A model generated the notes under the pieces. It saw only the letters and a program-made list of their open reading frames with translations. It did no database searches and had not been told where the DNA came from. From assembly GCA_045650025.1 (NCBI GenBank), contig JAZRQR010000157.1, forward strand, positions 12,682-76,681: a stretch of 64,000 nucleotides of DNA, read 5' to 3'. The translations under genes and the position numbers were made by a program. Below, in pieces: positions 22,638 to 38,744 of this stretch. Each line of letters starts with the position of its first letter. Within the stretch, counting starts at the first letter, position 1. This DNA is from Eubacteriales bacterium (GTDB lineage: Bacteria > Bacillota > Clostridia > Oscillospirales > CAG-272).

Positions 22638-24212
22638 ATGAAACGCTTGATTTCCCTTTTGGCGGTCTTGTTGGTGCTCTCACTGTGCGCGTGCAGCGTA
22701 CCCGGTGACGGAGTCACCGACACTACCATGACCGACCTTGACGATACGTCTGCGTCAAATGACACAACAGAGCCAGACACTGCCGCGCCGGAAACGGATG
22801 CGGACACCGAAGCCGAAACGTCTCCCGCCTGCAACCACGCAGACACGGACGACAACGGCGTTTGTGACGTGTGCACCATCTCGGTGCTGGTCAGCGTGGA
22901 TCTCTTTTCGATCAACGACCTGCACGGCAAATTCAACGATACCGACGATCAGCCCGGCGTGGACGAGCTGACCACCTATCTCAAAAACGCCGTACAAGCC
23001 AACCCCTACACCGTGCTGCTTTCGGCGGGCGATATGTGGCAGGGCAGCTCGGAGTCCAATTCCACCAAGGGTCTGATCATCACCGACTGGATGAACGAGC
23101 TGGATTTTGCCGGCATGGCACTTGGCAACCACGAATTTGACTGGGGCGTGGAGGCAATTTTGCAAAACGTGGAGCTTGCCGAGTTCCCCATTCTTGCCAT
23201 CAACGTCTATGAGCGAAGCACCAATACCTTGGCTGACTACTGCACCCCCTCGGTGCTTGTGGATAAGGGCGAGGTGCAGATCGGCATCATCGGTGCCATT
23301 GGCAACAACTATTCCTCGATCTCGGCGGACAAGGTGCAGGACTACTATTTCGTGCTGGACGATGCACTGACCAAGCTGGTCAAATCTGAGTCCGATTCCC
23401 TGCGTGCGCAGGGGGCAGATCTCATCGTATACGTCATTCATGACGGCGGCGGTGAATATGACTATTCCCTCTCCGACGGCTACGTAGACGTGGTTTTTGA
23501 GGGTCACAGCCACCAAAATTACGTCAAGAAGGACTCCCGGGGCATTTACCACCTGCAGGGCGGCGGCGATAACGACGGCATTACCCACGCCATGGCAAAG
23601 GTCAATTACGTGACCGGCAGCGTTGTAGTCGTGACCGCGGAATACCTGCCTACCTCGCGCTATGCAAGCCTTGCCGATGACCCCATTGTGGAAGAGCTCA
23701 ACCAAAAATACGCGGACGACCTGGAGATCGGCAACCAAAACCTTGGCTACAACGCAAAGAAGCGCTACTCCGATCAGATTCTGCAAAAGGTTGCGGATCT
23801 GTACCTTGCATACGGCGAGGAGCGCTGGGGTGAGCAATACGACCTGGTGCTGGGCGGCGGATTCCTCTCGGCGCGTTCCCCCTACGATCTTGAAAAGGGC
23901 GACGTGTATTACGCCGATCTGCAAATGCTGCTCCCCTTCGACAACCAGATCGTGCTGTGCTCAATCAAGGGCTCGGATCTCTTAAACCGCTTTATCAACA
24001 CCACCAACGACCGCTACTACATTTCGCTGAGTGACTACGGTACCGATATCAAAAGCTCGATTGACCGTAACGCCACCTATTACATCATCACAGACACCTA
24101 TTGCTCCTCCTACGCCGCCAACCGCCTGACCGTAATTGATACGTATGACCAGACCACGTTCGCGCGTGACCTGATTGCCGAATATATCAAGGACGGAAAT
24201 TGGAGTAAATAA
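22638..24212 (+). CDS. Secreted bifunctional metallophosphatase/5'-nucleotidase-family lipoprotein (UshA/CpdB/YhcR-C-terminal-like)
   Basis: Track ORF of 524 aa. It has a signal/lipobox (MKRLISLLAVLLVLSLCACS). The calcineurin-like motifs appear in order: INDLHG, GDMWQGS, GNHEFD, FEGHSHQ. A C-terminal substrate-binding-like domain follows. Confidence 0.85.
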   Translation: MKRLISLLAVLLVLSLCACSVPGDGVTDTTMTDLDDTSASNDTTEPDTAAPETDADTEAETSPACNHADTDDNGVCDVCTISVLVSVDLFSINDLHGKFNDTDDQPGVDELTTYLKNAVQANPYTVLLSAGDMWQGSSESNSTKGLIITDWMNELDFAGMALGNHEFDWGVEAILQNVELAEFPILAINVYERSTNTLADYCTPSVLVDKGEVQIGIIGAIGNNYSSISADKVQDYYFVLDDALTKLVKSESDSLRAQGADLIVYVIHDGGGEYDYSLSDGYVDVVFEGHSHQNYVKKDSRGIYHLQGGGDNDGITHAMAKVNYVTGSVVVVTAEYLPTSRYASLADDPIVEELNQKYADDLEIGNQNLGYNAKKRYSDQILQKVADLYLAYGEERWGEQYDLVLGGGFLSARSPYDLEKGDVYYADLQMLLPFDNQIVLCSIKGSDLLNRFINTTNDRYYISLSDYGTDIKSSIDRNATYYIITDTYCSSYAANRLTVIDTYDQTTFARDLIAEYIKDGNWSK

Positions 24213-24226
24213 AATATGAAATTATG

Positions 24227-24255
24227 AAAAAGCCGCTTAACAAAGCGGCTTTTTC
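24227..24255 (+). terminator. Rho-independent terminator (A/T flanked, could act both ways)
   Basis: AAAAAGCCGCTT-aaca-AAGCGGCTTTTT (24227-24255). Confidence 0.8.
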
Positions 24256-24321
24256 CTTCCTGTCTTCACATACGACGTGCAAACCGTCGAATCCGGTTCA
24301 TGCCTTTGCATGACATAACCG

Positions 24322-24343
24322 AAAGGGGCTTTTCAGCCCCTTT
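24322..24343 (-). terminator. Probable terminator of the ECF-sigma fusion gene
   Basis: AAAGGGGCT-tttc-AGCCCCTTT (24322-24343), 9 nt after the stop at 24352. Confidence 0.55.
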
Positions 24344-24351
24344 CTTAATTA

Positions 24352-26991
24352 TCATTCACTTTTCTTATACCATTGCTCCTCGGGGGCCGAGATGGGCCCT
24401 GCCTCCCAGCACGCTCTGTCCTGATTGCCCAGCGCATTGCGGAAGATGACCATTTCGTCGCCTTCCAGGTCGTAGGTGTATTCCACGGATGCATGCACGC
24501 CGTTGCCCGAGAATTTGGACTCATAGCGGCGGAACATGCCGTCCTCTGCGGGGAAAAATCCTTCGCCCGTGCCGTGGTATTCGGTCAGCTCCCAAACGTC
24601 CTGCAAGGTGTCGCCCTTGTACAGCGCGGTCATCTTGACAATGCCCACACCGGGTGCAAACCAGTATTCCTTCTTGCCGCCTCGATAGCCCCAGCCGGTG
24701 CCCTCAAGTCCACGCAGATCAAACGCGATATGTCTGCAGCCCTCGAACGTGCCAGCCTCAACCGTGACCGTGCAATCATCAAGCACGTCCAGCGTCAAGT
24801 CAACCTTCTGCCTTCCACATTCAACCTGCTTGGTTTCTAAGTGATAGCCGGGTACCCAAGCATCGCTCCAGAGATACCCTGTAGCTTCAGCCAAAATATC
24901 GTACAGGAAATTATGCAGCACACAAAATTCATAATCTCCGCATTTTGCCATGTCCTTGCCTTCGAACGAATAACGCCAGTTCCCCTCCCACGTATATCCC
25001 TTGCCGTTGTAAAGTAGTACATAAGGGGAGAAGAAATTCCATCTGCCAAATTCGGTGAAGTCGGGGTTGGCGTCCGGATCGGTATCCCAGATGCGCTGCA
25101 TGACCTCAGTTGCAATCGCCGTGTGCACCTTCTGACGCTTGGTCTCTGCCAGCTCTGCCGCGCGCTTCATGATGCCGCTGACGTCACGCAACAGCCATTT
25201 GCCATCCTTGGGATAGATATAATTGTGGCGCGCATTGAGAATATGGCCCTGCCAAGTATCTTTATAGCCCGTGACCTGTGCAAAGTAGCCGTTGCTGACC
25301 ACCGCTCTGCCATTTTTGTAGCTTGTGACCTCAAAATAGTTTTCCGCTGCAAAAACATAGGGGGAATCCTGATCTACACTAACATATTCCCAGCGATTTC
25401 CGGGAGCAAAAGGAACCATCCACTCTCCACCGCAAATTTTGTAAGAGCTCAGCTCCCAGCTGTGGGTATCGGAATACCTCGTGTTGGTCTGCGCGATCAA
25501 TCCCACACCCGGAGCAAATGCAGTTTTGGTATAGGTAACATAGGAAAGATTTCCTGTCATTTCATATACCGTACAATGTGCGAACGTACCTGCCGCCACC
25601 GTAACGGTTGCATCATTTTCAAGGCATGTCAGCGTCATGCTGCCATCGGACGACTTGACGCTTTGCCCCGGGAACAGATCAGGATCGTAAAGCAGTCCGT
25701 CGCAGAGAGAGGTATTCCAGAACAGCGAATCATTGAGTTCTGCCGTGCCGCCGCGAGTATATCCGGGCTGCTCCCAGAAGTAAAGCTTTTTGCCAACGTA
25801 CTGATAGACCTCACCGCGCGTGCCGTACGCCATACCGTCGCGGTCAAACGCCTCGATCTTGGGCGCGGCTGCCTTTTTCTGTTCTGTCCAAAGAGAAGAC
25901 AAGGCATTTGCATAGTACACATCCTCGGGAGTCAGAAGCTCCAACACCTTGCGGAAGGCATCCATACCCTGCTCCGTGTGGTTTTCATCCATGCTGTAGC
26001 AGCCGTACCAGAACCACGTATAGCCCACGGCCTTGACAAAGCCGTGCCGCTCAAGCTCGGGGATCTGCTCCTCGCGCATGAAGGCAAGGCGTTCCTCGCC
26101 CTTATATTTTTGGTATTCTTTGGGAACAACCGCCTGCATCACCGACTCATTACGGCTTGCAATGGCTGCTGCCTTGATTTTTGCCAGCACCTCATCGTTT
26201 GCCTGCCCGGGCAGCCACCAGTAGCCCAACAAAAGTACGTCAGCAAGCATGTATTGCTTATCTGCCGAGTCATCCAAGCCCTCAACCGAGGACAGCACAG
26301 CACGGTACTCGGGCTCAAAGCCTGTTTTGTCATTCTTGATACGCCACAGCTTGAGGTGCTCCACCTGCTCGCGCACGCGCTGTACCAAAGTCTTGTTTTC
26401 GTCGTATTCCTTTTCGATCATACCGTATTCCTTTCTCAGTTGTCGTCTCCCCTCGCTCAGACGCCACTTGACCGTTCCGACCGGTACGGAAAGCTTTGCG
26501 GCGATCTCGGCAACAGACAGCCCACCGAAGTAATGCAGCTCGATCGCCTCGCGGATCTTGTCGCTCAATGCATCCACGTATAAGTGCAGCTGCTCGTCAC
26601 GCATTGCCTCTGCAACGCCGACAACGCCTGTCAGCTCGTCAAGCCCGCTCTCATCCTCGCCACCCAAGTCCATGGTCTCCAAAAGGTGCAGGCTGATATC
26701 CGCCGTCACGCTTCTGTAGTGTGTAACAAGGCTACGGGCGCGATTCTTGGCGATGGCGCATACCCAAGAGCCGAATTTGCCCGGCTCCTTGAGAGATGCC
26801 AGGTTCATCCACGCCGACACAAAGGCATCCTGCGACGCATCCTCTGCAGAGAACGTGTTGCCCGTCACCTTATATGCCGTGCCCTTGACCGCACGCTCGT
26901 GCCGCAGCACCAGCGCGTCAAATGCTTTGGAATCGCCAAGCAGCGTCATTTGCACCAAGCTCTCGTCGTTTTTCTCGTTGTGCTTGTTCAT
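24352..26991 (-). CDS. ECF-type sigma-70 factor fused to a ~650-aa C-terminal extension with an internal domain duplication
   Basis: Track ORF of 879 aa. Region 2 is FSAEDASQDAFVSAWMNLASLKEPGKFGSWVCAIAKNRARS. Region 4 is LSVAEIAAKLSVPVGTVKWRLSEGRRQLRKEY. I see no TM segment. The duplicated modules are TVTVAAGTFAHCTVYEM...FAPGVGLIAQ...SWELSSY and TVTVEAGTFEGCRHIAF...FAPGVGIVKM...VWELTEY. Confidence 0.85.
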   Translation of the reverse strand: MNKHNEKNDESLVQMTLLGDSKAFDALVLRHERAVKGTAYKVTGNTFSAEDASQDAFVSAWMNLASLKEPGKFGSWVCAIAKNRARSLVTHYRSVTADISLHLLETMDLGGEDESGLDELTGVVGVAEAMRDEQLHLYVDALSDKIREAIELHYFGGLSVAEIAAKLSVPVGTVKWRLSEGRRQLRKEYGMIEKEYDENKTLVQRVREQVEHLKLWRIKNDKTGFEPEYRAVLSSVEGLDDSADKQYMLADVLLLGYWWLPGQANDEVLAKIKAAAIASRNESVMQAVVPKEYQKYKGEERLAFMREEQIPELERHGFVKAVGYTWFWYGCYSMDENHTEQGMDAFRKVLELLTPEDVYYANALSSLWTEQKKAAAPKIEAFDRDGMAYGTRGEVYQYVGKKLYFWEQPGYTRGGTAELNDSLFWNTSLCDGLLYDPDLFPGQSVKSSDGSMTLTCLENDATVTVAAGTFAHCTVYEMTGNLSYVTYTKTAFAPGVGLIAQTNTRYSDTHSWELSSYKICGGEWMVPFAPGNRWEYVSVDQDSPYVFAAENYFEVTSYKNGRAVVSNGYFAQVTGYKDTWQGHILNARHNYIYPKDGKWLLRDVSGIMKRAAELAETKRQKVHTAIATEVMQRIWDTDPDANPDFTEFGRWNFFSPYVLLYNGKGYTWEGNWRYSFEGKDMAKCGDYEFCVLHNFLYDILAEATGYLWSDAWVPGYHLETKQVECGRQKVDLTLDVLDDCTVTVEAGTFEGCRHIAFDLRGLEGTGWGYRGGKKEYWFAPGVGIVKMTALYKGDTLQDVWELTEYHGTGEGFFPAEDGMFRRYESKFSGNGVHASVEYTYDLEGDEMVIFRNALGNQDRACWEAGPISAPEEQWYKKSE

Positions 26992-27273
26992 GTGCGTTTC
27001 CTTTCTCGCCGTCTGTTTTTTGGGGGTTCTCTTCGACTATAAGACTCCGGATTTTGGCAAAAGGTTGGGTGGATCGAAAAATTTTGTTGGAATTATTATA
27101 ACACGGTTTTTGGGGCAAGTCAAGAAGCATCCATACATCCGTAGTGCGTGGGTTTGCTCCCGCCTCGCCCCCAATTCGCGCTCGCACAAACATCTTTTTT
27201 CACAAATTCTCCCTTGGCGTTTTGTGCGATGCTACAAGAATTTCGTTTCCGACAATTTCTTTTGAAAAAAGGT

Positions 27274-27302
27274 TTGCAATTTGTGCCGGTTTGTAGTATA
27301 AT
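27274..27302 (+). promoter_or_regulatory. Promoter TTGCAA-N17-TATAAT for the DHH-DHH-surE operon
   Basis: TTGCAA (27274-27279) and TATAAT (27297-27302). The ~100-nt leader contains the hairpins TGTTGA-gcgtgt-TTCAACA and GATTCC..CGGCATGCCG..GGAATC. Confidence 0.65.
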
Positions 27303-27410
27303 GATGTGTTGAGCGTGTTTCAACATATGACATAGATACAAATGATTCCCCGCCGGCATGCCGCGCGCGGAATCCCCCGGTTATTTTGAATAAAATTTAA
27401 GGAGTTATAT

Positions 27411-28355
27411 ATGTTTGAAAAGATTTTGGAGCAGATCCGCTGCCACGACACCATTATCCTTCACCGTCACACCAACCCCGACGGCGATGCAATGGGCAGC
27501 CAGATCGGGCTTAAGCACATCATCAAGGAAAACTTCGAGGGAAAGCGCGTGCTGATGGTGGGTGACCCTGCCAAGCGTTACGGCTTTATGGAGGACAGCG
27601 TGATGGACGAGGTGGCAGACGAGGACTACCGCGATGCCCTTGCCATTGTGCTGGATACCTCTGCAAAGGCGTTGATCAGCGACACGCGCTACACCACCGC
27701 GCACGTCTCTGCACGCATTGACCACCACCTGTTCTGCGAAACCATTGCAGATATTGAGGTGACCGACAACTCCTACGAGAGCTGCTGCGGTCTGATCACC
27801 GAATTCGCCATGGAGAGCGGACTTACCCTTTCCCCCTTGGCTGCAAAATCGCTTTACACGGGTATGATCACCGACTCGGGTCGTTTCCGCTACGACTCCA
27901 CCTCCGCCAACACCTTCCGTCTGGCTTCGTTCTTGAAGTCGCACCCCTTTGATACCAACGATATTTACCGCAATCTGTACGCAGATGACTTCTCTTTCAT
28001 CCGCCTGCGCGCCTCCTTTGTGCTGAAAATTCAGTTTACCGAGCACAAGGTGGGTTACATTTACACCACCAAAGAGGAGCTTGCCCAGACCGGCGCGGAC
28101 ACCTTTACCGTATCGCGCGGCATGGTCAACACCATGGGCGAGATTCGCGGCGTGGATATTTGGGTCAACTTTACCGAGACCGATGACGGCGTGCTTTGCG
28201 AGCTGCGCTCTTCCAAGTACAACATCAACGCTGTAGCAGTCAAGTACGGCGGCGGCGGTCACATCAAGGCAAGCGGCGCGACGGTGAAGGATCACGCAGA
28301 AGCAATGCAGATGCTGGCAGACCTTGACGCCATTGCGAGAGGAGGACAAAACTAA
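27411..28355 (+). CDS. DHH/DHHA1 phosphoesterase, NrnA-like (nanoRNase/pAp phosphatase; Pde2-type pApA/c-di-AMP activity not excluded), paralogue 1
   Basis: Track ORF of 314 aa with motifs ILHRHTNPDGDAMGS, VLDTS, RIDHH and GGGHIKASGA. The RBS is AAGGAG. Confidence 0.88.
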   Translation: MFEKILEQIRCHDTIILHRHTNPDGDAMGSQIGLKHIIKENFEGKRVLMVGDPAKRYGFMEDSVMDEVADEDYRDALAIVLDTSAKALISDTRYTTAHVSARIDHHLFCETIADIEVTDNSYESCCGLITEFAMESGLTLSPLAAKSLYTGMITDSGRFRYDSTSANTFRLASFLKSHPFDTNDIYRNLYADDFSFIRLRASFVLKIQFTEHKVGYIYTTKEELAQTGADTFTVSRGMVNTMGEIRGVDIWVNFTETDDGVLCELRSSKYNINAVAVKYGGGGHIKASGATVKDHAEAMQMLADLDAIARGGQN

Positions 28356-29326
28356 TGGAAATTTTACAGCAGATTTACGATAAGATCGCACAATACGACC
28401 GCATCATGCTGTTCCGCCACGTGCGCAACGACGGCGACTGCGTGGGCGCAACCAAGGGCCTTAAGGCGATTCTGACCCTGACCTGGCCCGAAAAGCAGGT
28501 ATATCTGATCGACGATGAGCATGCCGATTACTTAGAGTTCCTGGGGCCCGAGGATCAGCCCGTTGCCGACGAGGTGTACGAGGGCGCTTTGGGTATCGTG
28601 CTTGACACCGGCACAGACGCGCGTATTTCCAATAAGAAGTACGCACTTTGCAAGGAGCTGATCAAGATTGACCACCACATCAACATCTGTCCCTACGGCG
28701 ACCTTGCCTGGGTGGAGGAGGACGCCTCCTCTTGCTGCGAAATGGTGGCAAAATTCTACCTTGCAAACAAGGACAAGCTCAAGATCGACCGCGAGGCTGC
28801 AACCTACCTGTACACCGGCATTGTGACCGACTCGGGTCGCTTCCGTTACAACAGCACCTCGGGTGACACCATGCGCATAGCGGGCATGCTGCTGGATCTG
28901 GGCGTAGACACCGACGTGCTGTTTGCCAATCTGTACATGCAGGATCCGGAAAGCTTTAAGTTCAAGTCCTTTGTCTACAAGAACATGAAAATGACCCCCG
29001 CGGGCGTGGCGTATCTGTACGTCAGCCGCGCCACCATGGAAAAATACGGACTTTCGCACGAGCAGGCAGCCGCTGCCGTTTCGCTGATGGATTCGATCAA
29101 GGGCTCTTTGATCTGGCTGATCTTTATCGAGCACGAGACCGAGATCCGCGTGCGTCTGCGCTCCCGCTTTGCAACGGTCAATCAGATCGCCGAGCGCTAT
29201 AACGGCGGCGGTCACGCATGCGCAAGCGGCGCTACCGTGAAGTCCAGACGCGAGGCAAACAAGCTGATCAAGGAAGCTGACGCGGCACTTGCCAAGTACA
29301 AGGCGGAAAACGAGGGCTGGTTATGA
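28355..29326 (+). CDS. DHH/DHHA1 phosphoesterase, NrnA-like, paralogue 2
   Basis: Track ORF of 323 aa with motifs MLFRHVRNDGDCVGAT, VLDTG, KIDHH and GGGHACASGA. Its start overlaps the upstream stop (TAATG). Confidence 0.88.
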   Translation: MEILQQIYDKIAQYDRIMLFRHVRNDGDCVGATKGLKAILTLTWPEKQVYLIDDEHADYLEFLGPEDQPVADEVYEGALGIVLDTGTDARISNKKYALCKELIKIDHHINICPYGDLAWVEEDASSCCEMVAKFYLANKDKLKIDREAATYLYTGIVTDSGRFRYNSTSGDTMRIAGMLLDLGVDTDVLFANLYMQDPESFKFKSFVYKNMKMTPAGVAYLYVSRATMEKYGLSHEQAAAAVSLMDSIKGSLIWLIFIEHETEIRVRLRSRFATVNQIAERYNGGGHACASGATVKSRREANKLIKEADAALAKYKAENEGWL

Positions 29327-30048: not shown

Positions 30049-30056
30049 ACAATAAA

Positions 30057-30091
30057 GAAAAGGCGTTGCACCGAGGTGCAACGCCTTTTTT
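30057..30091. terminator. Bidirectional terminator between convergent operons
   Basis: GGCGTTGCAC-cgag-GTGCAACGCC (30062-30085), flanked by an A-run on the left and TTTTTT on the right. Confidence 0.85.
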
Positions 30092-30116
30092 ATGTTGTTT
30101 TGTAATCGGCCTGAAA

Positions 30117-32525
30117 TTAAGCGAGGATATCAGTTACCAGAATGGTCAGATACTTGCCGCTGCTTGCAGTGCCGATGATGTAACCCTCAACGGAGAAGGT
30201 GTTACCTGCCTGTGCGTCAAGTGCTTCCTTGATCGCGCCTGCGGGATAAGAGAAGCTGCCTACGATGGTGCAGCCATCCATGGTGAAGTTGTAGTAGTTG
30301 CCGGAAACAGCAAGCGTACCGGTCACCTTTACGTAGATGGGAGCAATATCGGAAGCGGTTGCGTAAGCATCCAGCTCAGCTGCACTCAGCTCTACAGCGG
30401 TGGGAGTCTCGACGGTGCCGTTCTCCAGAACGGTAACCTCGGTGCCCTGACCGAACTGCTTTGCACCGCCGTAAACGGAGGTGGTACCGGAAACCTTCAC
30501 CACGTCACCAACGTTGCACGAAGGAGCGGAGCCAAGGTAGATCAGCATCATGCCGGTCTTATCGGAGATCAGCAGGCTTCTGCCGGTGATACCAACAACA
30601 GTACCAACAGTCTCGTACTTGCCGTTCTCGCTTGCCTTGATCTCCTCAATGGTGGGGTAATCGGGCTTGCCCTCGGAAACTACAACGAGCTGCAGGGGGA
30701 ACTGGCTGACACCGGTGTTCTCAGCGCTGATGTAGCTGGTCTTGGAACCGCTGACGGTATCGAAGTTGCTGTAAGTGCCCAGGTAGTACTGGCTCTCCTC
30801 GCCCTCAACGTTGGTTACCCATGCGTTGATATCAGCGTTGTAAACGTAAACGGAAAGTGCGGTATCCTGATAGAATACGGCGATCTTGCCACCGTCGTTC
30901 TTGGTGATGTTGATGTACTTCTTAGCGCCGTCTACCATGGTGTAGAAGGAGTAGCCATCGCCGTTTGCCTCAGCATAAACGTCGATCGCCTCTGCAGCAG
31001 CCTTGGAGGTGATCAGGTATCTGTCACCGGTTACACCGCCGGATACGAATACGCCGTAGCCGTTGGTGCCCTGGTACATATAGAGCTTGTATGCAACTTC
31101 AGCCTCGGGAGTGGTTACGGGCTCAACGGTAAAGTTGGTAGCAACCAGCATAACCTCAAACTCGACGGTCTCGGTAGCATCACCCAGAGTAACGGTTGCA
31201 GTCAGCTTGATGGTGGTGGTCTCTGCAGGCATGGTCAGAGTCAGCTTGCCGTCTGCAATCTTAGCAAACTCGCTGTCGGAAGCCCAAGTGATGGAAACTT
31301 CGGGATAGGTTGTGCCTGCTACGGGCAGATCGATCTCAGCGCCCTCGGTGAAGGTGCTCTCGAAGGTCAGGCTATCCTTTTCCAGGGTAACCTTTTCAGC
31401 ATCGGATCTTTCGGGAAGTGCGTAGTTGTAGAAGCAATCTACGGAAGTGGGAATGATGTAGGGTGCGCCGCTGTAGGTGATCAGAATACCGGTAACGTCA
31501 GCGGTGTAGCCGTACTTTTCAGCGTGTGCTGCATCGATGGTTGCCTTGTCGTCAGCCTTCAGGGTAGTGGGGAAATCGGTTACGTAGGTTCTTACGTAGC
31601 CCTGAACGCCATTCAGCTCGAAGAACAGGTACTGGCTGGTTGCAGTTGCAAGCTCCTGACCGCCAATGGTAACGCCCTTAACGGTTACAGGCATACCAAC
31701 AAGCTCATTGAAGTTGGTGCCTTCAACCCACTTATCGGTAATGTCAACGGGAGCGAAGTCCTTCTTTTCAGTGTTTACAACAGTGGGAATACCGCCCTTG
31801 ATCTCCATCATGCCGCTGTAAGGAGCAGCAGGACCGGAAACGCGAACGGTCATACCGAGCTCGATGCCGAGATCAGCAACGGGGTCAACGTCCATCTGGT
31901 AGGAGTAGTAGCCGCCAAAGCCGCTCTCATCCAAGAGGAACAGGTGGTTTCTGGTGTTGCCTGCAGCCTTGGAGTTGATAGCAACAACGATACCCTGAAT
32001 GATCAGGTTGTCGCCTTCCTTAGCAGCCTGGTACTCTTCCCAAGTAGTAACCTTGAACTTGGGAACAGTGCGGTTGAATTCCTTGGTAACGGTGTTGCCT
32101 TCTGCATCAGCAACGGTTGCAGTCAGCACGTAAGCAATGTCCTCGAAGGACTCGTCGGGAACGTCAACGGTAACGGTGCCGTCCTCGGCAACGGTAAGAG
32201 TGATCTTATCGGTGTTAACAGCCCAGGTAACAGCGTAGCTTACGCCGCCAACCTTCACGCTGGAAATCAGGGTGTAGTCAGCAGCGGTAACGGTGGTGTC
32301 CTTGTACAGCTGACGAACGTACTCAGCTGCGTTCTCAAGGTCAGTGGGCTCTTGAGCGCCGGGCTCCTCGGTGGTGACTTCCTCAGAAGACTCGGGAGTC
32401 TCGGTCGTCTCTTCAGCAGCGGTAGTGTCATCAGTTCCCTGCTGCTCGCCGTTGTCACAAGCAACGAACAGAGCCAGAGAGCAAACAAGAGCTGCTGCGA
32501 GCAAAAGCATTAAAATCTTTTTCAT
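30117..32525 (-). CDS. Large surface lipoprotein with repeated OB-fold-like modules (putative nucleic-acid-binding, no catalytic motif seen)
   Basis: Track ORF of 802 aa with a lipobox (MKKILMLLLAAALVCSLALFVACDNG). Modules include GNLIIQGIVVAINS...HLFLLDESGFGGYYSY...GMTVRVSG...YSGMMEIKG and YETVGTVVGITGRSLLISDKTGMMLIYL...GDVVKVSGTTSVYGGAKQF. These resemble the OB barrels of extracellular nucleases. Confidence 0.7.
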   Translation of the reverse strand: MKKILMLLLAAALVCSLALFVACDNGEQQGTDDTTAAEETTETPESSEEVTTEEPGAQEPTDLENAAEYVRQLYKDTTVTAADYTLISSVKVGGVSYAVTWAVNTDKITLTVAEDGTVTVDVPDESFEDIAYVLTATVADAEGNTVTKEFNRTVPKFKVTTWEEYQAAKEGDNLIIQGIVVAINSKAAGNTRNHLFLLDESGFGGYYSYQMDVDPVADLGIELGMTVRVSGPAAPYSGMMEIKGGIPTVVNTEKKDFAPVDITDKWVEGTNFNELVGMPVTVKGVTIGGQELATATSQYLFFELNGVQGYVRTYVTDFPTTLKADDKATIDAAHAEKYGYTADVTGILITYSGAPYIIPTSVDCFYNYALPERSDAEKVTLEKDSLTFESTFTEGAEIDLPVAGTTYPEVSITWASDSEFAKIADGKLTLTMPAETTTIKLTATVTLGDATETVEFEVMLVATNFTVEPVTTPEAEVAYKLYMYQGTNGYGVFVSGGVTGDRYLITSKAAAEAIDVYAEANGDGYSFYTMVDGAKKYINITKNDGGKIAVFYQDTALSVYVYNADINAWVTNVEGEESQYYLGTYSNFDTVSGSKTSYISAENTGVSQFPLQLVVVSEGKPDYPTIEEIKASENGKYETVGTVVGITGRSLLISDKTGMMLIYLGSAPSCNVGDVVKVSGTTSVYGGAKQFGQGTEVTVLENGTVETPTAVELSAAELDAYATASDIAPIYVKVTGTLAVSGNYYNFTMDGCTIVGSFSYPAGAIKEALDAQAGNTFSVEGYIIGTASSGKYLTILVTDILA

Positions 32526-32568
32526 ATTAGCTCCTTATTTTTATCAAAAAAAATTGTGGATACTGCCA

Positions 32569-34014
32569 TTAGCCGATGATGATATCATCGATTGCAAACA
32601 CTCTGACCTGGTACTGACCGTCGTAGGAATCCACGATGCCTCTTACCGTGATCTTGGTGCCTGCGGGGAAAATGTCCTGGGTAACGATATTACCCTGTGC
32701 GTCCAGCAGCACCTCGGTTCTGATGACGATGGTGGTACCGTCCTCTGCCGTACAGGTCAGAGACATGGCACCCTTATCGTCGCTGGTCTCGGAGGTGGTG
32801 GTGTACACGCTTTGTACGGTCAGATCCTTGACCGTTACGGTGCTGTAGTGTGCCAGCTCGCCGTACTTGAACTCGGTGGGAGTGCTGATCTCGTTGCCAT
32901 CTGCATCCTGCGTAATGACATCCAGCGTCAGCTTACCGCTGACGATGTCCGAAGCTGCTACTTCACTGTAGCTTGCGCTGTAGCCTTCCTCGAGCTTATG
33001 GATACCGTCCTTGGAGAGTGCTCCGTTGGGGTCCATCATATCCACGCTGTACTTGATATTGGAAATCTGCCAGGTGCCGCCCAGCTCGTAATACTGCAGC
33101 GTACCCACCATCATCACGCGGTTGCCAATGCTCAGTGCTTGCATGACGTTGCCGGGGGTGTTGTAGCCGCAGAATACCTGCATACCGTAGTACATATCGG
33201 TCTCTGCATCGTACTCCTCCAGGTAAACGGTTGCACCGCTTCTCTTAACGACCACTGCCTCAAAACGAACCAACTGATCCTTGTAAGGCTCATAGTTGAG
33301 CTTGAGCTCCTTTAAGGTTACGTTCTGTGCACCGCCGTAATAGAACTCGGGGTCCTTATCCTTGGAGAACACGTAAAGCTTGAACTGCTTTGCCTGGTTG
33401 AGCGCACCCATGGTGTAATCGGAGTACGCATTGTCGGCTGCATTCGAGCCAAACGCAAGACCCTGCTGCAAAATCTCCAGGTTGAGGTTGCGGTACTCGG
33501 TCATTTCTGCCGTCTTGTACCATACCCAAACCAGGTATCTGCCGCCGGTGGAATCGGCATTCCAGCTTGCGTTATCGGATTCAATGTAAATAGAGGTTGC
33601 CTTGGAAAGGGTTTCCTTAGTATAGTTGGAAGCCTTTTTGCCCCAAGGCTCGATGATGCCGGTGGATTCGGGGGTGTTGATACCAAGGTATCTTGCCTTG
33701 AGAATATCACCGGGCACAATGCCTGCGGGTACGTTGAAGTGGGTGGTATCACCGTCAATGAACGCGTGAACCGTGACTTCTACGTTAAGTCTGCCGGAGT
33801 TGGGATCAAACTTGAGCTGAGAAGCAAAGTCTACAAACTCGGGCTCGGGAGCTTGGGTCGTTTCGGAGGGGTCGGTAGTTTCGAGGGTCGTCTCGGTGCT
33901 GTCCGCAGCCGTGGTCTCCTCGGTCGTGCCGCCCTCGGTATCGCAGGCTGCAAAGCAGCCTGCGATCATGCCAAAAGCGAGCAGAACGATCAATAATTTA
34001 GCAAAATTCTTCAT
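32569..34014 (-). CDS. Thermonuclease (staphylococcal-nuclease, SNase) family lipoprotein with C-terminal OB-like domains
   Basis: Track ORF of 481 aa with a lipobox (LLAFGMIAGCFAAC). The SNase signature appears in order: FIDGDTTHF, ARYLGINTPES, EPWGKKASNYTKE, GGRYLVWVWY, NLEILQQGLA. The C-terminus has LVRFEAVVVKRSGATVYLEE...GNRVMMVGTLQYY. Confidence 0.85.
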   Translation of the reverse strand: MKNFAKLLIVLLAFGMIAGCFAACDTEGGTTEETTAADSTETTLETTDPSETTQAPEPEFVDFASQLKFDPNSGRLNVEVTVHAFIDGDTTHFNVPAGIVPGDILKARYLGINTPESTGIIEPWGKKASNYTKETLSKATSIYIESDNASWNADSTGGRYLVWVWYKTAEMTEYRNLNLEILQQGLAFGSNAADNAYSDYTMGALNQAKQFKLYVFSKDKDPEFYYGGAQNVTLKELKLNYEPYKDQLVRFEAVVVKRSGATVYLEEYDAETDMYYGMQVFCGYNTPGNVMQALSIGNRVMMVGTLQYYELGGTWQISNIKYSVDMMDPNGALSKDGIHKLEEGYSASYSEVAASDIVSGKLTLDVITQDADGNEISTPTEFKYGELAHYSTVTVKDLTVQSVYTTTSETSDDKGAMSLTCTAEDGTTIVIRTEVLLDAQGNIVTQDIFPAGTKITVRGIVDSYDGQYQVRVFAIDDIIIG

Positions 34015-34063
34015 CGTTTTCTCTGCTTGTTATGATTTTGTAATAATGGATCTTTGGGAAGGA

Positions 34064-35563
34064 TTACTGAGCGTTCTTACACTCGGTAACTGCCTTTGCA
34101 AACGCCTCGTCCAGCATAGCGTCTACATCGGTTGCGGGAGTGGTGAAGCAGTACTGCATCAGCTCGCCAACCTTGTCACGTGCAACGGAAGAGCCGTTGA
34201 ATGCGGGAGATACGAAGTAAGCGTTGGACATATCTCTACCAACCTTAACAGCCAGAGCCTGGATGTTGTCGCCGCCGTCTGCATTGTCAAGGAAGTTCTT
34301 GTATGCGGGGATCTGGTCAACGCTCTTGATAACGGGCATGTAACCGGAGATCATGGAGAATGCTGCCTGGAACTCGGGGTTGGTGGTCAGGAACTCAACG
34401 AACAGCCAGGAAGCGATGACTTCCTGCTTGTTGTCGGACTCAAAGATGCACAGAGAGGGACCCTGGGAGATAGCCTTGGGGTTCTCTGCATTGACCTGAG
34501 GAATGGGAGCGATGCCTACCTCAAACGCATAACCGGTATCGGTAGCCTCGGGACGCTGGTGGATGGAACCACCGGTGGAACCGATGGACATATAGCTGTT
34601 CTTATCGGTCAGCTCGGTGAACAAGCCCGAGGTGTAACCGCCGTACAGCTCCTGGGTGGTCAGGTAGCCCTTCTCGTACCAGCCTCTGAACATCTTAACG
34701 AATACCTTGTTCTGGGGATGGTCGAACTGGTAGTTGTTACCTCTCTCAGTGGAGGTGTAGGGAGAGCCGTACTGCTCGGTCATGGTGATGAACCAGTTAG
34801 CCTCGGAGTCGTAACCAAGGGGAATGCAATCGGGATCGATCTCAAGGATCTTCTGGCAAAGAGCCTCCATTTCCTTCCAGGTGGTAGGAACCTGCAGGTT
34901 GTGCTGCTCGAAGAAGGTCTTGTTGTAGTACAGAACCTCTGTGGACTTGGACATAGGCAGGGTGTACATGGTGCCTGCGTTGTCAAATACTGCACCCTCT
35001 GCGTAGAAGCCGGGGATGAAGTCAGCGATCTGCTCTGCGGTCAGACCCAGAACAGTGGTGTTGCCCTTTGCATCGGTGATCTCGATGGTGCTGTTGATGA
35101 AGCTGTTGAGCGGTACTACTGCCTTTGCTACGTTGTACAGAGCAACGTGGTCGGGATAGCAGTATGCGATGTTAGGCTGGTTGCCTGCGGTCAGCTCGGT
35201 CTTGATCTGGTCGCGAACCTCGTCGTAACCGCCAACCTGTGCATGCTCTACGTGGATGTTGGGGTACATTTCGTTGAACTTTGCAATGTACTGATCCAAA
35301 ATGCCCTGGTAGGTTGCATTCATGGTGTGGGAGAAGGTGATGGTAACTTCGCTGCCGTCGTATGCAATAACGTCATACTCCAGGGGCTTTGCCTGGGTGT
35401 TGCCGTTATCTGCGGAGCCGCTTTCGCCTTCAGGCTGAGTCTCAGCCGCTTCGGTGTCAGTGGGACGCTCGGTAGTGGACTCGTGACGGTTGTCGCAGCT
35501 TACAAGTGCGAACATGCCAAGACACAGAGTCAACATCAGAGCAAACGCAAGAATTCTTTTCAT
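34064..35563 (-). CDS. ABC transporter substrate-binding lipoprotein (family-1/CUT1-type, 499 aa)
   Basis: Track ORF with a lipobox (LCLGMFALVSCDN). Its size and alpha/beta pattern are typical of extracellular solute-binding protein family 1. Confidence 0.8.
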   Translation of the reverse strand: MKRILAFALMLTLCLGMFALVSCDNRHESTTERPTDTEAAETQPEGESGSADNGNTQAKPLEYDVIAYDGSEVTITFSHTMNATYQGILDQYIAKFNEMYPNIHVEHAQVGGYDEVRDQIKTELTAGNQPNIAYCYPDHVALYNVAKAVVPLNSFINSTIEITDAKGNTTVLGLTAEQIADFIPGFYAEGAVFDNAGTMYTLPMSKSTEVLYYNKTFFEQHNLQVPTTWKEMEALCQKILEIDPDCIPLGYDSEANWFITMTEQYGSPYTSTERGNNYQFDHPQNKVFVKMFRGWYEKGYLTTQELYGGYTSGLFTELTDKNSYMSIGSTGGSIHQRPEATDTGYAFEVGIAPIPQVNAENPKAISQGPSLCIFESDNKQEVIASWLFVEFLTTNPEFQAAFSMISGYMPVIKSVDQIPAYKNFLDNADGGDNIQALAVKVGRDMSNAYFVSPAFNGSSVARDKVGELMQYCFTTPATDVDAMLDEAFAKAVTECKNAQ

Positions 35564-35634
35564 GGTTTGTTTCCTTTCGTTATTTGTGTTATTTTTATTT
35601 TATTTATAGACTTTACTGGTCAATAAATCGGTCA

Positions 35635-36543
35635 TTAACCCTTGATGCCGCTCTTGGATACGCCCTTCATAATATACTTACGGAGGAAGATAAATACCAA
35701 GAACAGAGGGATCGAAACAACGGTAACCGCAGCCATCTGCACGGGGATATCCGCCTCACCCGAGCCTGCATCCGTAAACGCGGAGCGCAAGCCGTTGGTG
35801 ATCAGCCAGAAATCTCTGTGTGCAACCAGTCTGGGCCAGACGTAGGAGTTCCAAGCACCCATCATTTTCAGAATGGTGATGGAGATCAGCGTAGGCAGGG
35901 ACAGCGGGATCATCACCTTGCACAGGTACTTGAAATCGCTGGTACCGTCTACCTTAGCTGCCAGGTAAAGCTCATTGGGGATCTGCATGAAGTTCTGTCT
36001 GAGCAGGTAGATATAGAAGATACTGACCAAGAACGGAACGATCAGTACCGAATAACCTGCCAGCCAGTGATCGTTGTTTACCCAGTCAAATTTGTCAACC
36101 GTGATATAGTTGGTAATGGTAAACAGCTCACCGGGGATCATCATGGTGCCAAGCAGCGCAGCAAACAGCGCGTTCTTGCCCTTGAACTCCAGACGTGCAA
36201 ACGCAAATGCCGTGATAATGGTGATCACCAGCGACAAAAGCGTGGACACAACACCGACGATTACGGTGTTCTTGAACAGCTTGAGCAGCTCTGCCTTGGT
36301 AAATGCCTGCAGATAGTTGCTCCAGATGATCTGCTTGGGGAACAGCGTGGGCACGGAGAGCTTGTACTCTGCCAGCGACTTGAGCGAGGAAATGATCATC
36401 CAGTAGAACGGGAAGATTACGATGATCGCCATGATCACCAAAAACAGATACAGGAAAAACTGCGAGATGATCTTAACGACCTTTTGTCTGCCAGTTACCT
36501 TTTGGAGGTCCTTTTCGGACAATACCTTGAATTGATTTGCCAT
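35635..36543 (-). CDS. ABC transporter permease (MalG/CUT1-type)
   Basis: Track ORF of 302 aa with six TM segments and an EAA-like loop (LYLAAKVDGTSDFKYLCKVMIPLSLP). Confidence 0.88.
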   Translation of the reverse strand: MANQFKVLSEKDLQKVTGRQKVVKIISQFFLYLFLVIMAIIVIFPFYWMIISSLKSLAEYKLSVPTLFPKQIIWSNYLQAFTKAELLKLFKNTVIVGVVSTLLSLVITIITAFAFARLEFKGKNALFAALLGTMMIPGELFTITNYITVDKFDWVNNDHWLAGYSVLIVPFLVSIFYIYLLRQNFMQIPNELYLAAKVDGTSDFKYLCKVMIPLSLPTLISITILKMMGAWNSYVWPRLVAHRDFWLITNGLRSAFTDAGSGEADIPVQMAAVTVVSIPLFLVFIFLRKYIMKGVSKSGIKG

Positions 36544-36559
36544 GATAGTACCTCCTTAC

Positions 36560-37639
36560 TTAATAATGTGTCTTCTTCTTGCTGACCGCGAGGTTAACAA
36601 GCGTTACAGCAAAGATGAGCAGGAACAGCAAGAGCGCGGCTGCGGAAGCAATACCCTCTGCGTTACCCAGGTTGTCGTAAATATAACCAACCATGGTCTG
36701 CAATCTGGGCGTACCAACCGATGCTCCGGGAGGCTGCATGCCTTCGCCGAAGATACCGACGATGCTGGTGTACTCCTTAAATCCGCCGATAAATCCGGTA
36801 ATGACCACGTATGCGATCATGGGAGAGAGCAGCGGAACGGTAATACGGGTAAATACTCTCCACTTGGGAGTCGAGTCAACCTTAGCAGCATCGTAATACT
36901 GCTTGTTGACGCTCTGCAAGCCGCCCAGCAGGATCAGGATCTTGAAAGGCAGTGCGTTCCATACGATATAAACGATCATGACAGCCATGTTCGCCCAGTA
37001 GGTCGAGCCCTGGTTGATCCAGTTGATGGGGTCCATACCGAACCAGCCGATTACGGTATTGATGATACCGACCGAGGTGCTGGCGGCGATATCGGTGGTG
37101 TTGACACCAACGATATTAAACATTGCTGCAAATACCATACCGATTGCGATCGAGTTGGTCACGTACGGCAAGAAGAAGATAGTCTGCAGCAGTCTGCGCA
37201 GGGGCTTGATCGCATTCAGACATACCGCGATCAGCAGCGCAAGGAAGGTTGAGAGCGGTACGGTCAGCACGCAAAGCAGCACCGTGTTTTGCATGATCAA
37301 CCAGAAACCGTCGTAATTGATAACCGCCTTGAAGTTTGCCAGACCGAATTCATAATCGATCTCACCCGTCAGGCTTTCCGAAATCTTGTAGGTCGAATAA
37401 CCGCCCCACTTGACAGGCACTTCTTTTTTGTGAACGACGTCTACCTTGTCCCCATTTTCATCGATAATGGTAACGATCTCTTCCTGAATTTCAAATTCCA
37501 CCGGCAGATCCGGATCCCAATACACTGTAAACGCCATGCGCAAGGTATTGACGATCGGCCATGCAGTGAAGATCAGCAACAGAATGATCGCGGGAAGCAG
37601 ATAGAGCCACGCTTTCCATTGTTGTTTACTGTCAACCAT
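36560..37639 (-). CDS. ABC transporter permease (MalF/CUT1-type) with an enlarged first extracytoplasmic loop
   Basis: Track ORF 36560..37720. The start is moved to the ATG at 37639 (MVDSKQQWKAWLYLLPAIILLL), 6 nt after GAGGAGGG. The EAA-like loop is YYDAAKVDSTPKWRVFTRITVPLLSP. Confidence 0.85.
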   Translation of the reverse strand: MVDSKQQWKAWLYLLPAIILLLIFTAWPIVNTLRMAFTVYWDPDLPVEFEIQEEIVTIIDENGDKVDVVHKKEVPVKWGGYSTYKISESLTGEIDYEFGLANFKAVINYDGFWLIMQNTVLLCVLTVPLSTFLALLIAVCLNAIKPLRRLLQTIFFLPYVTNSIAIGMVFAAMFNIVGVNTTDIAASTSVGIINTVIGWFGMDPINWINQGSTYWANMAVMIVYIVWNALPFKILILLGGLQSVNKQYYDAAKVDSTPKWRVFTRITVPLLSPMIAYVVITGFIGGFKEYTSIVGIFGEGMQPPGASVGTPRLQTMVGYIYDNLGNAEGIASAAALLLFLLIFAVTLVNLAVSKKKTHY

Positions 37640-37649
37640 GATGCCCTCC

Positions 37650-38744
37650 TCAGAAATAAATTCTGTTCTCGGTCTCGGCGTCGAAAATAAACACCTTATG
37701 AGGCTTGAGCGAGTAGGCAACGGATGCCTTGGAAAGGTCTACCTTATAGTCAGAGTTAATGATGGCACGAACCAGAGGATTTACAGAGGAGGAATGCTCA
37801 CAAACCACGCTCATGTCTCTGCCCATGACCTCAACGTTCTTGAGATCACATACCATAGGACCGTTCTCCTCGGGGATAAAGCCCTCGGGACGAATGCCCA
37901 CGATGACCTCACGGTTATCTACGCCGGGCACATCCAGCACAGCGTTCTCACCCATGAACAGCTTGCCGTTCTCTACTCTGCCCTTGAATACGTTGATGGG
38001 AGGAGTACCCAAAAACTTTGCAACGAACAGGTTAGCGGGGTTATCGTACACCTCCTGAGGTGCACCGATCTGCTGTACCACACCAAGCTTCATAACAACG
38101 ATCATATCGGAAATGGACATTGCCTCTTCCTGGTCGTGCGTTACGAATACGGTGGTAATGCCGGTCTCCTTCTGGATGCGGCGGATCTCTTCTCTGGTCT
38201 GCAGACGCAGTCTTGCATCCAGGTTGGAAAGCGGCTCGTCCAAAAGCAGTACGCGAGGCATCTTGACCAGTGCTCTTGCAATGGCAACTCTCTGCTGCTG
38301 ACCGCCCGACATTTCGCTGGGCTTACGATCCATCAGATCCTCGATCTGCACCAGCTTAGCTGCCTGGTATGCACGCTCCAGCATGGCTTCCTTGGTCATC
38401 TTGTCCTTGCCCTTGAGGTTCTGCAGGGGGAACATAATGTTCTGCTTCACCGTCATGTGGGGGTATAGTGCGTAGTTCTGGAACACCAGACCAACGCCGC
38501 GGTTTTCGGGAGAAAGCTTAGTCACATCCTCGTCTCCAAAGAAAATCTGACCGCCGGAGGGCTTTTGCAGACCACTGATCATGTACAGCGTGGTACTCTT
38601 ACCGCAACCGGAAGGACCAAGCAAACCAACCAGCTTACCGTCCGGGATGGTAAAGGTAAAATCGTTGACCGCGATGACCTCACCGCCCGCCTTTTTATTG
38701 CGGCTGGGGAAGATTTTCGTTAGATTTCGTAATTCGACTTTCAT
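37650..38744 (-). CDS. ABC transporter ATP-binding protein (MalK/MsmX/UgpC-type)
   Basis: Track ORF of 364 aa. Walker A is GPSGCGKST, the signature is LSGGQQQRVAIARAL, and Walker B is LLLDEPLSNLD. A C-terminal MalK-like regulatory domain follows. Confidence 0.92.
   Translation of the reverse strand: MKVELRNLTKIFPSRNKKAGGEVIAVNDFTFTIPDGKLVGLLGPSGCGKSTTLYMISGLQKPSGGQIFFGDEDVTKLSPENRGVGLVFQNYALYPHMTVKQNIMFPLQNLKGKDKMTKEAMLERAYQAAKLVQIEDLMDRKPSEMSGGQQQRVAIARALVKMPRVLLLDEPLSNLDARLRLQTREEIRRIQKETGITTVFVTHDQEEAMSISDMIVVMKLGVVQQIGAPQEVYDNPANLFVAKFLGTPPINVFKGRVENGKLFMGENAVLDVPGVDNREVIVGIRPEGFIPEENGPMVCDLKNVEVMGRDMSVVCEHSSSVNPLVRAIINSDYKVDLSKASVAYSLKPHKVFIFDAETENRIYF

Follow-up and report, generated by a model that had tools for sequence, protein, structure and literature searches.

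A conserved surface nuclease and ABC importer locus of an uncultured gut Clostridia bacterium with a probable role in nucleic-acid foraging

A predicted surface nuclease gene lies in one operon-like unit with an ABC importer

We analysed a 64,000-nt stretch of DNA (hereafter the window) from a Eubacteriales bacterium (CAG-272; assembly GCA_045650025.1, contig JAZRQR010000157.1, positions 12,682-76,681 of the forward strand). An earlier reading of this sequence (the original prediction) had pointed to a cluster of genes for nucleic-acid breakdown that includes a lipoprotein with a staphylococcal nuclease-type (SNase) domain. Every gene that it listed was confirmed, in place and in kind, by Pfam and NCBIfam matches, translations and motifs. 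The core of the locus is a minus-strand run of seven co-directional genes extending from 39580 to 30117, separated by gaps of only 10-71 bp, which form a single operon-like unit in this order:

38789-39580 (-): RDD-family membrane protein, heading the operon (Pfam RDD, E = 1.8e-11; 3-4 hydrophobic segments)
37650-38744 (-): ABC (ATP-binding cassette) ATPase of the MalK/UgpC type (Pfam ABC_tran and OB_MalK/CysA_C; NCBIfam UgpC, E = 5e-104, below cut-off)
36560-37639 (-): ABC permease 1, MalF/UgpA-like (Pfam BPD_transp_1; NCBIfam MalF/UgpA-like)
35635-36543 (-): ABC permease 2, UgpE/MalG-like (Pfam BPD_transp_1; NCBIfam UgpE-like)
34064-35563 (-): solute-binding lipoprotein of the CUT1/UgpB-like class (Pfam SBP_bac_8/SBP_bac_1; lipobox LVSC)
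32569-34014 (-): SNase-domain lipoprotein, a predicted surface nuclease (Pfam SNase, residues 107-210; lipobox IAGC/FAAC)
30117-32525 (-): 802-aa multidomain, OB-containing lipoprotein (lipobox FVAC; aBig_2 at residues 396-461; OB-type domain at ~652-695)

There is no internal terminator of note within this run. The RDD protein starts at an ATG preceded by AAAGGAG, and the real start of permease 1 is the ATG at 37639, rather than the TTG at 37720. The original prediction had listed an ABC importer among the genes that lie between three separate lipobox proteins. The importer is indeed present, but the ABC, SNase and 802-aa lipoprotein genes are not scattered and belong to one operon-like unit headed by the RDD gene. 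A second operon converges on the first and encodes three enzymes:

27411-28355 (+): NrnA-like DHH/DHHA1 phosphoesterase 1 (Pfam DHH/DHHA1; DHH and GGGH motifs)
28355-29326 (+): NrnA-like DHH/DHHA1 phosphoesterase 2 (Bacillus subtilis NrnA, 5J21, E = 1e-66; DHH and GGGH motifs)
29323-30048 (+): SurE 5'/3'-nucleotidase (Pfam SurE, E = 1e-49; TIGR00087, 161.9 vs 135.1 bits)

The two operons have the following transcription signals:

39651-39679 (-): sigma-A-type promoter-like site of the RDD-to-OB-lipoprotein operon (TAGACT-17-TATGAT, extended -10 TG)
27273-27302 (+): sigma-A-type promoter-like site of the NrnA-NrnA-SurE operon (10/12 matches)
30056-30091 (both strands): bidirectional intrinsic terminator between the two convergent operons (16-bp and 14-bp stems, then T-runs)

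The core gene order is conserved across species

Relatives of the SNase lipoprotein were aligned, and the alignment was used to fetch loci with one genome per GTDB species. A relative is encoded in at least 582 matched stretches of GTDB species-representative genomes (582/599 among the matches listed). Our comparison set consisted of the best 80 of these at least 582 loci, each from a species-level genome and with 10 kb kept on each side. The set derives from metagenome-assembled genomes (MAGs) of uncultured Clostridia, Eubacteriales or Oscillospiraceae type, together with a few labelled Bacilli or Mollicutes, and ruminant gut or faecal sources are named in most record titles of the fetched MAGs. 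Synteny was counted by tblastn of the window proteins against the 80 loci, and only loci in which the contig reached far enough (informative loci) were counted.

The solute-binding protein gene was present in all 73 informative loci, as were permease 2 (70/70), permease 1 (67/67), the ABC ATPase (61/61) and the RDD protein (59/59), and the order and strand of these five genes upstream of the SNase gene were invariant in every informative locus. The SNase gene was directly followed by one for a homologue of the 802-aa lipoprotein in at least 53 of 71 loci, and 51 of these homologues had a lipobox. The DHH-DHH-SurE triplet was convergent and downstream in 33 of the 43 loci with at least 9.5 kb of downstream sequence. 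Bacilli and 'Mollicutes bacterium' MAGs were among the loci (L063, L069 and L077), and the gene order of L077, a 'Mollicutes bacterium' MAG, was exactly that of the window. An independently annotated contig (L087) listed RDD, ABC_tran, two BPD_transp_1, solute-binding and SNase proteins and a 1046-aa protein, followed by convergent DeoB, DeoC and thymidine kinase genes. Clustering of the core genes is thus beyond chance, because the core order is kept in 59-73 informative loci per gene at 45-91% SNase identity, the full range of the compared loci. The original prediction had argued that the clustering was unlikely to be coincidence and had proposed a synteny comparison with related genomes; now carried out, this comparison upholds that view for the core.

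The interval holds four transcription units, each with a good sigma-A-type promoter (the nucleotidase and sigma factor genes described below have their own), in agreement with the 'at least four' anticipated. The -35/-10 region of the RDD operon is kept in close relatives, and in distant relatives the region upstream shows a recurring A-tract/TTGA/T-tract plus TGTGnTATAAT pattern. Rfam gave no match to a riboswitch or any further RNA family within the cluster, and the leaders of the two convergent operons showed unremarkable folding (z = -2.2 and -0.1). A search across the loci for an operator shared upstream of the RDD and NrnA operons returned only strong sigma-A promoters with A- and T-tract flanks. 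Since only sigma-A promoters were found, and no shared operator or RNA element, there is no computational evidence of co-regulation.

The predicted nuclease is accompanied by a large multidomain lipoprotein

The surface proteins have N-terminal lipoboxes and are without a C-terminal hydrophobic anchor. Catalytic residues of staphylococcal nuclease are conserved in the SNase lipoprotein, where alignment placed R35, E43, R87, D21 and T41 as R108, E116, R159, D89 and T114. Its C-terminal half contains OB/DUF5689-like domains, with OB-type matches at residues 406-470, and PF01336 was found in five of nine relatives.

In the 802-aa lipoprotein, the only Pfam match was aBig_2 (Ig-like). Its OB assignment is based on an NCBIfam match of residues 661-745 to the N-terminal, non-catalytic part of ExeM/NucH nucleases, on one match (residues 652-695, i-E = 3e-7; weakly also 172-244) to a hidden Markov model (HMM) built from the relatives' PF01336 segments, and on PF01336 matches in relatives. 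The AlphaFold model is a string of beta-rich domains (mean predicted local distance difference test score, pLDDT, 74), the N-terminal ones of which are conserved, and relatives range from 400 to 1400 aa and vary in their C-terminal OB domains. Pfam, NCBIfam and the family HMM revealed no catalytic domain, and a PDB sequence search gave no match. Foldseek with the whole model retrieved only generic multi-Ig and cadherin-like chains (template-modelling score ~0.1), and in a profile-profile comparison of this family with the SNase family only the signal peptides aligned. Because no catalytic domain was found, the best reading of this protein is that of a presumed nucleic-acid-binding partner of the nuclease. 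It had been called an 'OB-only' protein; one sequence-supported OB-type domain bears out the first part of this name, whereas aBig_2 and the unassigned beta-rich domains make 'only' too strong.

The binding protein resembles a dinucleotide-binding protein

The ABC importer is the centre of the system, since it is co-operonic with the nuclease and present in every informative locus. As a clue to its cargo, we compared the solute-binding lipoprotein with solved structures. The best PDB sequence match (phmmer) was the 7C0F-7C1B series from Thermus thermophilus (E = 8e-21, vs 3e-12 for UgpB). In agreement, a Foldseek search with the predicted model (mean pLDDT 78.9) returned 7C0F-type entries as the top 16 matches and as 26 of the top 27. 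The titles of the 7C0F-7C1B entries describe a dinucleotide-binding ABC transporter protein with endogenously bound uridylyl-3'-5'-phospho-guanosine; the entries are attributed to Chandravanshi et al. (FEBS J 2021, PMID 33599038).

We took the eight residues mutated in the deposited 7C0F-7C1B entries as putative ligand contacts. Three of the eight are identical in the window protein (Thermus/window: Y56/Y113, S127/S207 and Q274/Q367) and three are conservative (F79/Y136, N81/D138 and T240/S329), and these six counterpart positions are invariant in 26 relatives of the binding protein. The Thermus protein is therefore the best solved match in both sequence and predicted fold, although the mature part of the window protein is ~60 residues longer, with extra loops, and differs at two aromatic positions. 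This likeness is suggestive, not decisive, with regard to cargo. The N-terminus also gave a weak NCBIfam match to 'P68 family surface lipoprotein' (E = 4e-8, below cut-off).

The invariant presence of the RDD protein (59/59) matches no known function of the RDD family, and the protein may be a transporter accessory subunit not recognised before.

Cytoplasmic nucleotide and nucleoside enzymes accompany the core

The two DHH/DHHA1 paralogues share 36% identity with each other. Both scored below the NCBIfam NrnA equivalog cut-off (228 and 245 vs 350 bits), and their membership of NrnA is therefore at the family, not the equivalog, level. SurE starts with MRILITNDDG, in which the NDDG motif occupies residues 7-10; SurE enzymes are among the few cytoplasmic enzymes known to have 3'-nucleotidase activity. 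None of the three proteins has a signal peptide.

To survey neighbours in other species, all open reading frames (ORFs) of the 80 loci were clustered, and recurrent unlabelled clusters were then annotated. The following recurred beside the core:

Lipoprotein with a sub-threshold barnase-type signature: 27 loci
Thymidine kinase: 14 loci
dGTP-triphosphohydrolase-like HD protein: 10 loci
DeoC: 10 loci
Uridine kinase: 8 loci
DeoD purine-nucleoside phosphorylase: 7 loci
DeoB phosphopentomutase: 6 loci
Pyrimidine-nucleoside phosphorylase: 5 loci

Of the 36 loci that span at least 19 kb, 27 encode one or more cytoplasmic enzymes of nucleoside or nucleotide metabolism, and 26 encode two or more. In other species, such enzymes add to or substitute for NrnA-NrnA-SurE. 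It is chiefly this guilt-by-association with nucleoside and nucleotide enzymes that indicates a role of the core in handling products of nucleic-acid breakdown. Synteny and neighbours alike thus bear out the original prediction of a functionally coherent cluster for nucleic-acid catabolism. They also fit its intracellular half, in which the DHH enzymes convert short oligonucleotides to nucleoside monophosphates and SurE converts these to nucleosides.

The barnase-type lipoprotein, which is absent from the window, sits between the OB lipoprotein gene and SurE in its 27 of the 80 loci (for example L058, 14411-15661, and L050, 13343-14353), and has Ig-like domains and a C-terminal PF00545 signature. 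This signature is sub-threshold and was present in 10 of 11 of these lipoproteins scanned, with E293, R324 and H351 invariant; we take these to be the positions of the barnase catalytic triad. On the strength of this sub-threshold signature, the third lipoprotein is a candidate barnase-like RNase.

A trace of a further neighbour persists in the window itself:

27350-27392 (+): remnant of the 3' end (~45 nt) of a dGTPase-like HD gene in the NrnA-operon leader (alignment with L005 and L004)

The HD gene of close relatives lies directly upstream of the first NrnA gene; it is intact in L005 (16630-17832), with HD and HD_assoc domains that are dGTP-triphosphohydrolase-like, and has been deleted in the window lineage.

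A model for nucleic-acid foraging

We propose that the locus is probably a foraging system by which an uncultured gut Clostridia bacterium scavenges and imports nucleic acids. In this model, the lipid-anchored SNase nuclease and its OB-containing partner would capture extracellular DNA or RNA at the outer face of the membrane. Cleavage at the surface would yield mono-, di- and short oligonucleotides, with 3'-phosphate ends if SNase chemistry applies; SNase-type enzymes release 3'-phosphorylated products, as is reported for YhcR (PMC4714964). The solute-binding lipoprotein would take up the small phosphorylated products and pass them to the CUT1/Ugp-type ABC importer (two permeases and a MalK-like ATPase), which would bring them in, possibly with the RDD protein. 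In the cytoplasm, the two NrnA paralogues would cut the imported short oligonucleotides to mononucleotides, and SurE would remove the phosphate to leave nucleosides for salvage or catabolism. The two convergent operons would in this way be functionally coupled. Kinases, phosphorylases and DeoB/DeoC, which are encoded nearby in other species, would then salvage or burn the nucleosides.

Three observations together point to the cargo being short phosphorylated oligonucleotides rather than nucleosides, namely the dinucleotide-type binding protein, the NrnA/SurE linkage and the lack of a conserved surface phosphatase. For the last of these, the survey of the 80 loci found no surface phosphatase conserved with the core, besides a nucleotidase in six. 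The original prediction had included, as the first of two stages, an extracellular route all the way to nucleosides. This route is not conserved, and the NrnA pair, SurE and the binding protein point to import in phosphorylated form. Going further, the RDD-associated CUT1-type system could be a dedicated importer of phosphate-bearing nuclease products (by which we mean dinucleotides, short oligonucleotides and 3'-nucleotides), coupled to the NrnA paralogues and SurE, and this route could be common to several hundred species of gut Clostridia and Bacilli and to Mollicutes. We regard this broader proposal as possible but less likely than not.

The foremost alternative retains the scavenging but holds that nucleosides or deoxyribose are imported after full extracellular digestion, with NrnA and SurE as mere housekeeping neighbours. 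A 5'-nucleotidase-family lipoprotein is indeed encoded 6 kb from the core in the window; a nucleotidase gene is, however, found within 10 kb in only six of the 80 loci, and the survey offered no other surface phosphatase as a constant partner. The neighbours in other species (nucleoside kinases, phosphorylases and DeoB/DeoC) act on nucleosides and deoxyribose phosphate, as this alternative would have it, yet entry of nucleosides alone would hardly account for the linkage of the NrnA pair and SurE seen in 33 of 43 loci. To our knowledge, nucleoside ABC importers use BMP/PnrA-type binding proteins and a different permease family, not the CUT1/UgpB type, and the nearest solved relative of the window binding protein holds a dinucleotide. 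Dephosphorylation before uptake is nevertheless the classical view and is likewise assumed in the Hujiaoplasma model (PMC10470597), and YhcR and YfkN of B. subtilis provide a precedent for cooperation between a surface nuclease and a phosphatase (PMC11458576). On balance, we regard entry as nucleosides or deoxyribose as unlikely.

The best NCBIfam names of the transporter proteins are UgpB, UgpE and UgpC, all below cut-offs, and UgpB structures lie close behind the top PDB matches. The transporter might accordingly be an ordinary Ugp-like importer of glycerophosphodiesters, glycerol-3-phosphate or sugar, with a nuclease that is merely co-operonic, and the theme of the locus would be general phosphate scavenging from phospholipid head groups and nucleic acids. 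Against this, the binding protein, permeases, ATPase and SNase are linked in every informative locus across deep divergence, and the linked cytoplasmic genes are nucleoside- or nucleotide-specific. The recurrent neighbour clusters of the 80 loci include no glycerophosphodiesterase or glycerol-3-phosphate enzyme, and in sequence the dinucleotide-binding protein gives a match that surpasses UgpB by nine orders of magnitude. We therefore find a Ugp-like role very improbable. A non-nutritional role (such as remodelling of biofilm or matrix DNA, protection from foreign DNA or evasion of DNA traps of the host) with an incidental transporter is the least probable of all, since an importer that is invariably co-operonic, together with linked genes for catabolism and salvage, suggests that the products are used and the relatives come from MAGs with ruminant gut and faecal source titles, even though Mycoplasma and staphylococcal SNase homologues have been implicated in escape from neutrophil extracellular traps and in cytotoxicity (PMC9740415; PMC12115388).

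Several points weigh against nucleic-acid foraging by import of phosphorylated products. The entire scheme for the window organism rests on homology and gene context, and nucleotide uptake by free-living bacteria is generally considered unusual. The binding protein shares only ~20% identity with its Thermus counterpart, from which it departs at two of the eight putative ligand residues (Y224/L314 and Y246/H335), and three identities in eight are not significantly above the 20% background. In the Foldseek search, UgpB and sugar-binding proteins followed close behind (E = 1e-17 to 1e-16). For the surface proteins, the OB assignment is weak over most of the 802-aa lipoprotein, and in the SNase lipoprotein the staphylococcal Ca2+ ligand Asp40 is replaced by N113, an Asn invariant in the family. 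To judge from the alignment, this replacement may shift the metal preference of SNase lipoproteins; MAG_5040, a mycoplasma SNase homologue, is reportedly Mg2+-dependent. Finally, NrnA and SurE are absent nearby in 10 of the 43 informative loci and in the Mollicutes-like MAG, and both are housekeeping enzymes in many Firmicutes. Given this housekeeping role and patchy linkage, their adjacency to the core could partly reflect inherited gene order.

Related systems in other bacteria

The closest described system is an operon of Mollicutes, of which the window locus looks like the walled-Clostridia counterpart. In that operon, SNase lipoprotein genes are co-transcribed with a gene for a lipoprotein resembling solute-binding proteins and with an ABC transporter annotated as a sugar importer, and import of nucleotide precursors has been proposed, not shown (PMC3585158; PMC4045577; PMC9740415; PMC12115388). 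Examples are M. agalactiae MAG_5030-5070 (with SNase MAG_5040), M. hyopneumoniae mhp379, M. bovis MBOVPG45_0307-0311, M. gallisepticum MslA with SNase MGA_0676, and M. pneumoniae Mpn133 (PMC3585158; PMC4045577; PMC9740415). P80/MslA, the binding-protein-like lipoprotein of this operon, is reported to bind both ssDNA and dsDNA (PMC3585158; PMC4045577; PMC9740415; PMC12115388).

Like the Mollicutes operon, the window locus combines an SNase lipoprotein in one unit with a binding-protein-like lipoprotein, a MalK/UgpC-type ATPase and two 'sugar-type' permeases. The likeness is one of gene layout and description, and the sequence hints are the weak P68 match mentioned above and the occurrence of the same module in L077. 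The gene order differs, being binding-protein-like lipoprotein, SNase, ATPase and permeases in M. agalactiae. In addition, the window has an RDD protein, a large OB lipoprotein, a linked convergent NrnA-NrnA-SurE operon and a walled host.

In Izemoplasma (Xianfuyuplasma zrk13) and Hujiaoplasma nucleasis zrk29, which are free-living, wall-less relatives of Firmicutes, DNA or RNA induces loci that enable the cells to grow on nucleic acids (PMC8397711; PMC10470597). As in the window, they combine extracellular nucleases (among them thermonuclease or RNase), phosphohydrolases, NrnA and ABC transporters. By their published description, on which this comparison is based, they differ in having EddB and phosphate transporters, and nucleoside uptake after extracellular dephosphorylation has been proposed for them.

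YhcR of B. subtilis is described as a sortase-anchored, Ca2+-dependent, non-specific endonuclease that releases 3'-nucleotides and serves to reclaim phosphate from extracellular DNA (PMC11458576; PMC4714964; PMC3222306). It is a functional analogue, and it too joins a surface-attached SNase-type nuclease with OB-type domains to a 5'-nucleotidase-family module. The original prediction had gone further and seen in the window a 'disaggregated YhcR', with nuclease, OB and nucleotidase modules as three separate proteins. The comparison does not support this triad as the conserved unit. The SNase protein already has OB-like domains, and the window proteins are separate lipoproteins without an LPXTG-like anchor, not sortase substrates, in contrast to the single sortase-anchored YhcR polypeptide. 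The gene for the nucleotidase, 6 kb distant and on the opposite strand, has a promoter and a terminator of its own, and a homologue lies within 10 kb in six of the 80 loci, whereas the importer is the constant, co-operonic partner of the nuclease. We know of no ABC importer beside yhcR.

The locus is widespread, with at least 582 matched stretches among walled gut Clostridia and Bacilli, yet not a new kind of system. Its value lies in the hint that it gives as to what this transporter family carries, most likely short phosphorylated oligonucleotides. If that is true, a nutritional route for oligonucleotide uptake would be defined and the cargo of the mycoplasma nuclease-linked ABC transporter would receive a biochemical answer. 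Confirmation would also explain by what means much of the gut microbiota obtains nucleic acids from the diet, the host and microbes, and would yield tractable proteins from non-pathogens as models of the mycoplasma system. With nucleosides as the only cargo, the locus would be an ordinary salvage cluster.

A sporadic nucleotidase-like protein and a probably unrelated sigma factor

Two further genes that the original prediction had included in the cluster lie on the far side of the NrnA operon:

22638-24212 (+): 5'-nucleotidase/UshA-superfamily lipoprotein (NDLHG, GDMWQG, GNHEFD and GHSH; lipobox LSLCAC)
22581-22609: promoter of the nucleotidase gene
24321-24344: terminator of the nucleotidase gene
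24352-26991 (-): ECF-type sigma fusion, 879 aa (sigma-70 regions 2 and 4, residues 27-188)

The nucleotidase-like protein matched Metallophos (31 vs a 21.5-bit cut-off) and, marginally, 5_nucleotid_C (23.7 vs 23.6), scored far below the cut-offs of all NCBIfam equivalogs and has a very divergent C-terminal domain. By NCBIfam, it resembles CpdB less closely than it does the 5'-nucleotidase halves of YfkN, Nt5e and UshA. Homologues within 10 kb of the core (6/80 loci) occupied varying positions. This presence, sporadic yet recurrent near the module in distant species, suggests that the protein is an optional, lineage-specific accessory.

Just upstream of the nucleotidase promoter is a palindromic element of ~280 nt (22288-22567) with 27-nt terminal inverted repeats (TAGCCGTACGGGAGTCGAACC.../...GGTTCGATTCCCGTACGGCTA) that resemble the T-arm and acceptor end of a tRNA. 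The element folds extremely stably on both strands (z = -11.7 and -12.7). ARAGORN and Rfam gave no match, and we rejected its identification as a tRNA, tmRNA or known RNA family. Other metagenome contigs, with different flanks, carry nearly identical fragments of it (97-99.5%) that are truncated by the contig ends, as well as one full-length copy (79%). Since the flanks of the copies differ, the element looks like a small mobile element of the MITE (miniature inverted-repeat transposable element) kind that was inserted at this position.

The sigma fusion has a soluble C-terminal extension of ~690 aa, with no hydrophobic segment and only a weak DUF3108_like match, which makes it an unusual protein in itself. 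Within the best 80 loci, it is confined to the six closest relatives; among the five full-length copies in these, two are interrupted by in-frame stops (L005, 18188-20833; L007, 15689-18331). Three relatives have an unbroken frame, as does the window, and we therefore rejected the possibility that the fusion is an assembly artefact. The original prediction had cast this protein as a 'private sigma factor' of the cluster and had suggested a promoter search upstream of the operons. The sites found are of the sigma-A type, not the ECF type, in all units. As the cluster promoters are sigma-A-like, nothing ties the fusion to the cluster, and together with its narrow distribution and the stopped copies this leaves it as probably an unrelated neighbour of the system.

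Other features of the window

Base composition is uniform across the window (~50-56% GC) and the flanking genes are ordinary chromosomal ones. The idea of a horizontally acquired island was therefore rejected, and the word 'island', as first applied to the cluster, has no compositional sign in its favour.

Four regions outside the cluster merit a brief description. A purine riboswitch aptamer (RF00167, 10799-10855 (-); 39.9 bits vs a gathering threshold of 37) lies directly upstream of the ORF at 8994-10766 (-). This ORF encodes 590 aa, of which residues 326-535 are uridine-kinase-like, an unusual gene to find under a purine riboswitch; purC is at 12751-13449. An ORF at 40517-43111 (-) matched no Pfam or NCBIfam family, occurs only in the closest relatives and adjoins a phosphoglycolate-phosphatase-like HAD hydrolase (39848-40513). 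A 1000-aa ORF at 47723-50725 (-) unites an MFS domain at residues 29-379 and glycoside hydrolase family 2 domains at residues 500-866, and represents either a genuine fusion of transporter and hydrolase or two genes run together. Lastly, 16891-21759 (-) encodes a surface protein of 1622 aa that has repeats rich in Thr, Pro and Glu and weakly matches the Listeria-Bacteroides repeat, and in which a C-terminal transmembrane helix is followed by a cytoplasmic tail with a uL15-like Ribosomal_L27A domain (E = 2.5e-13).

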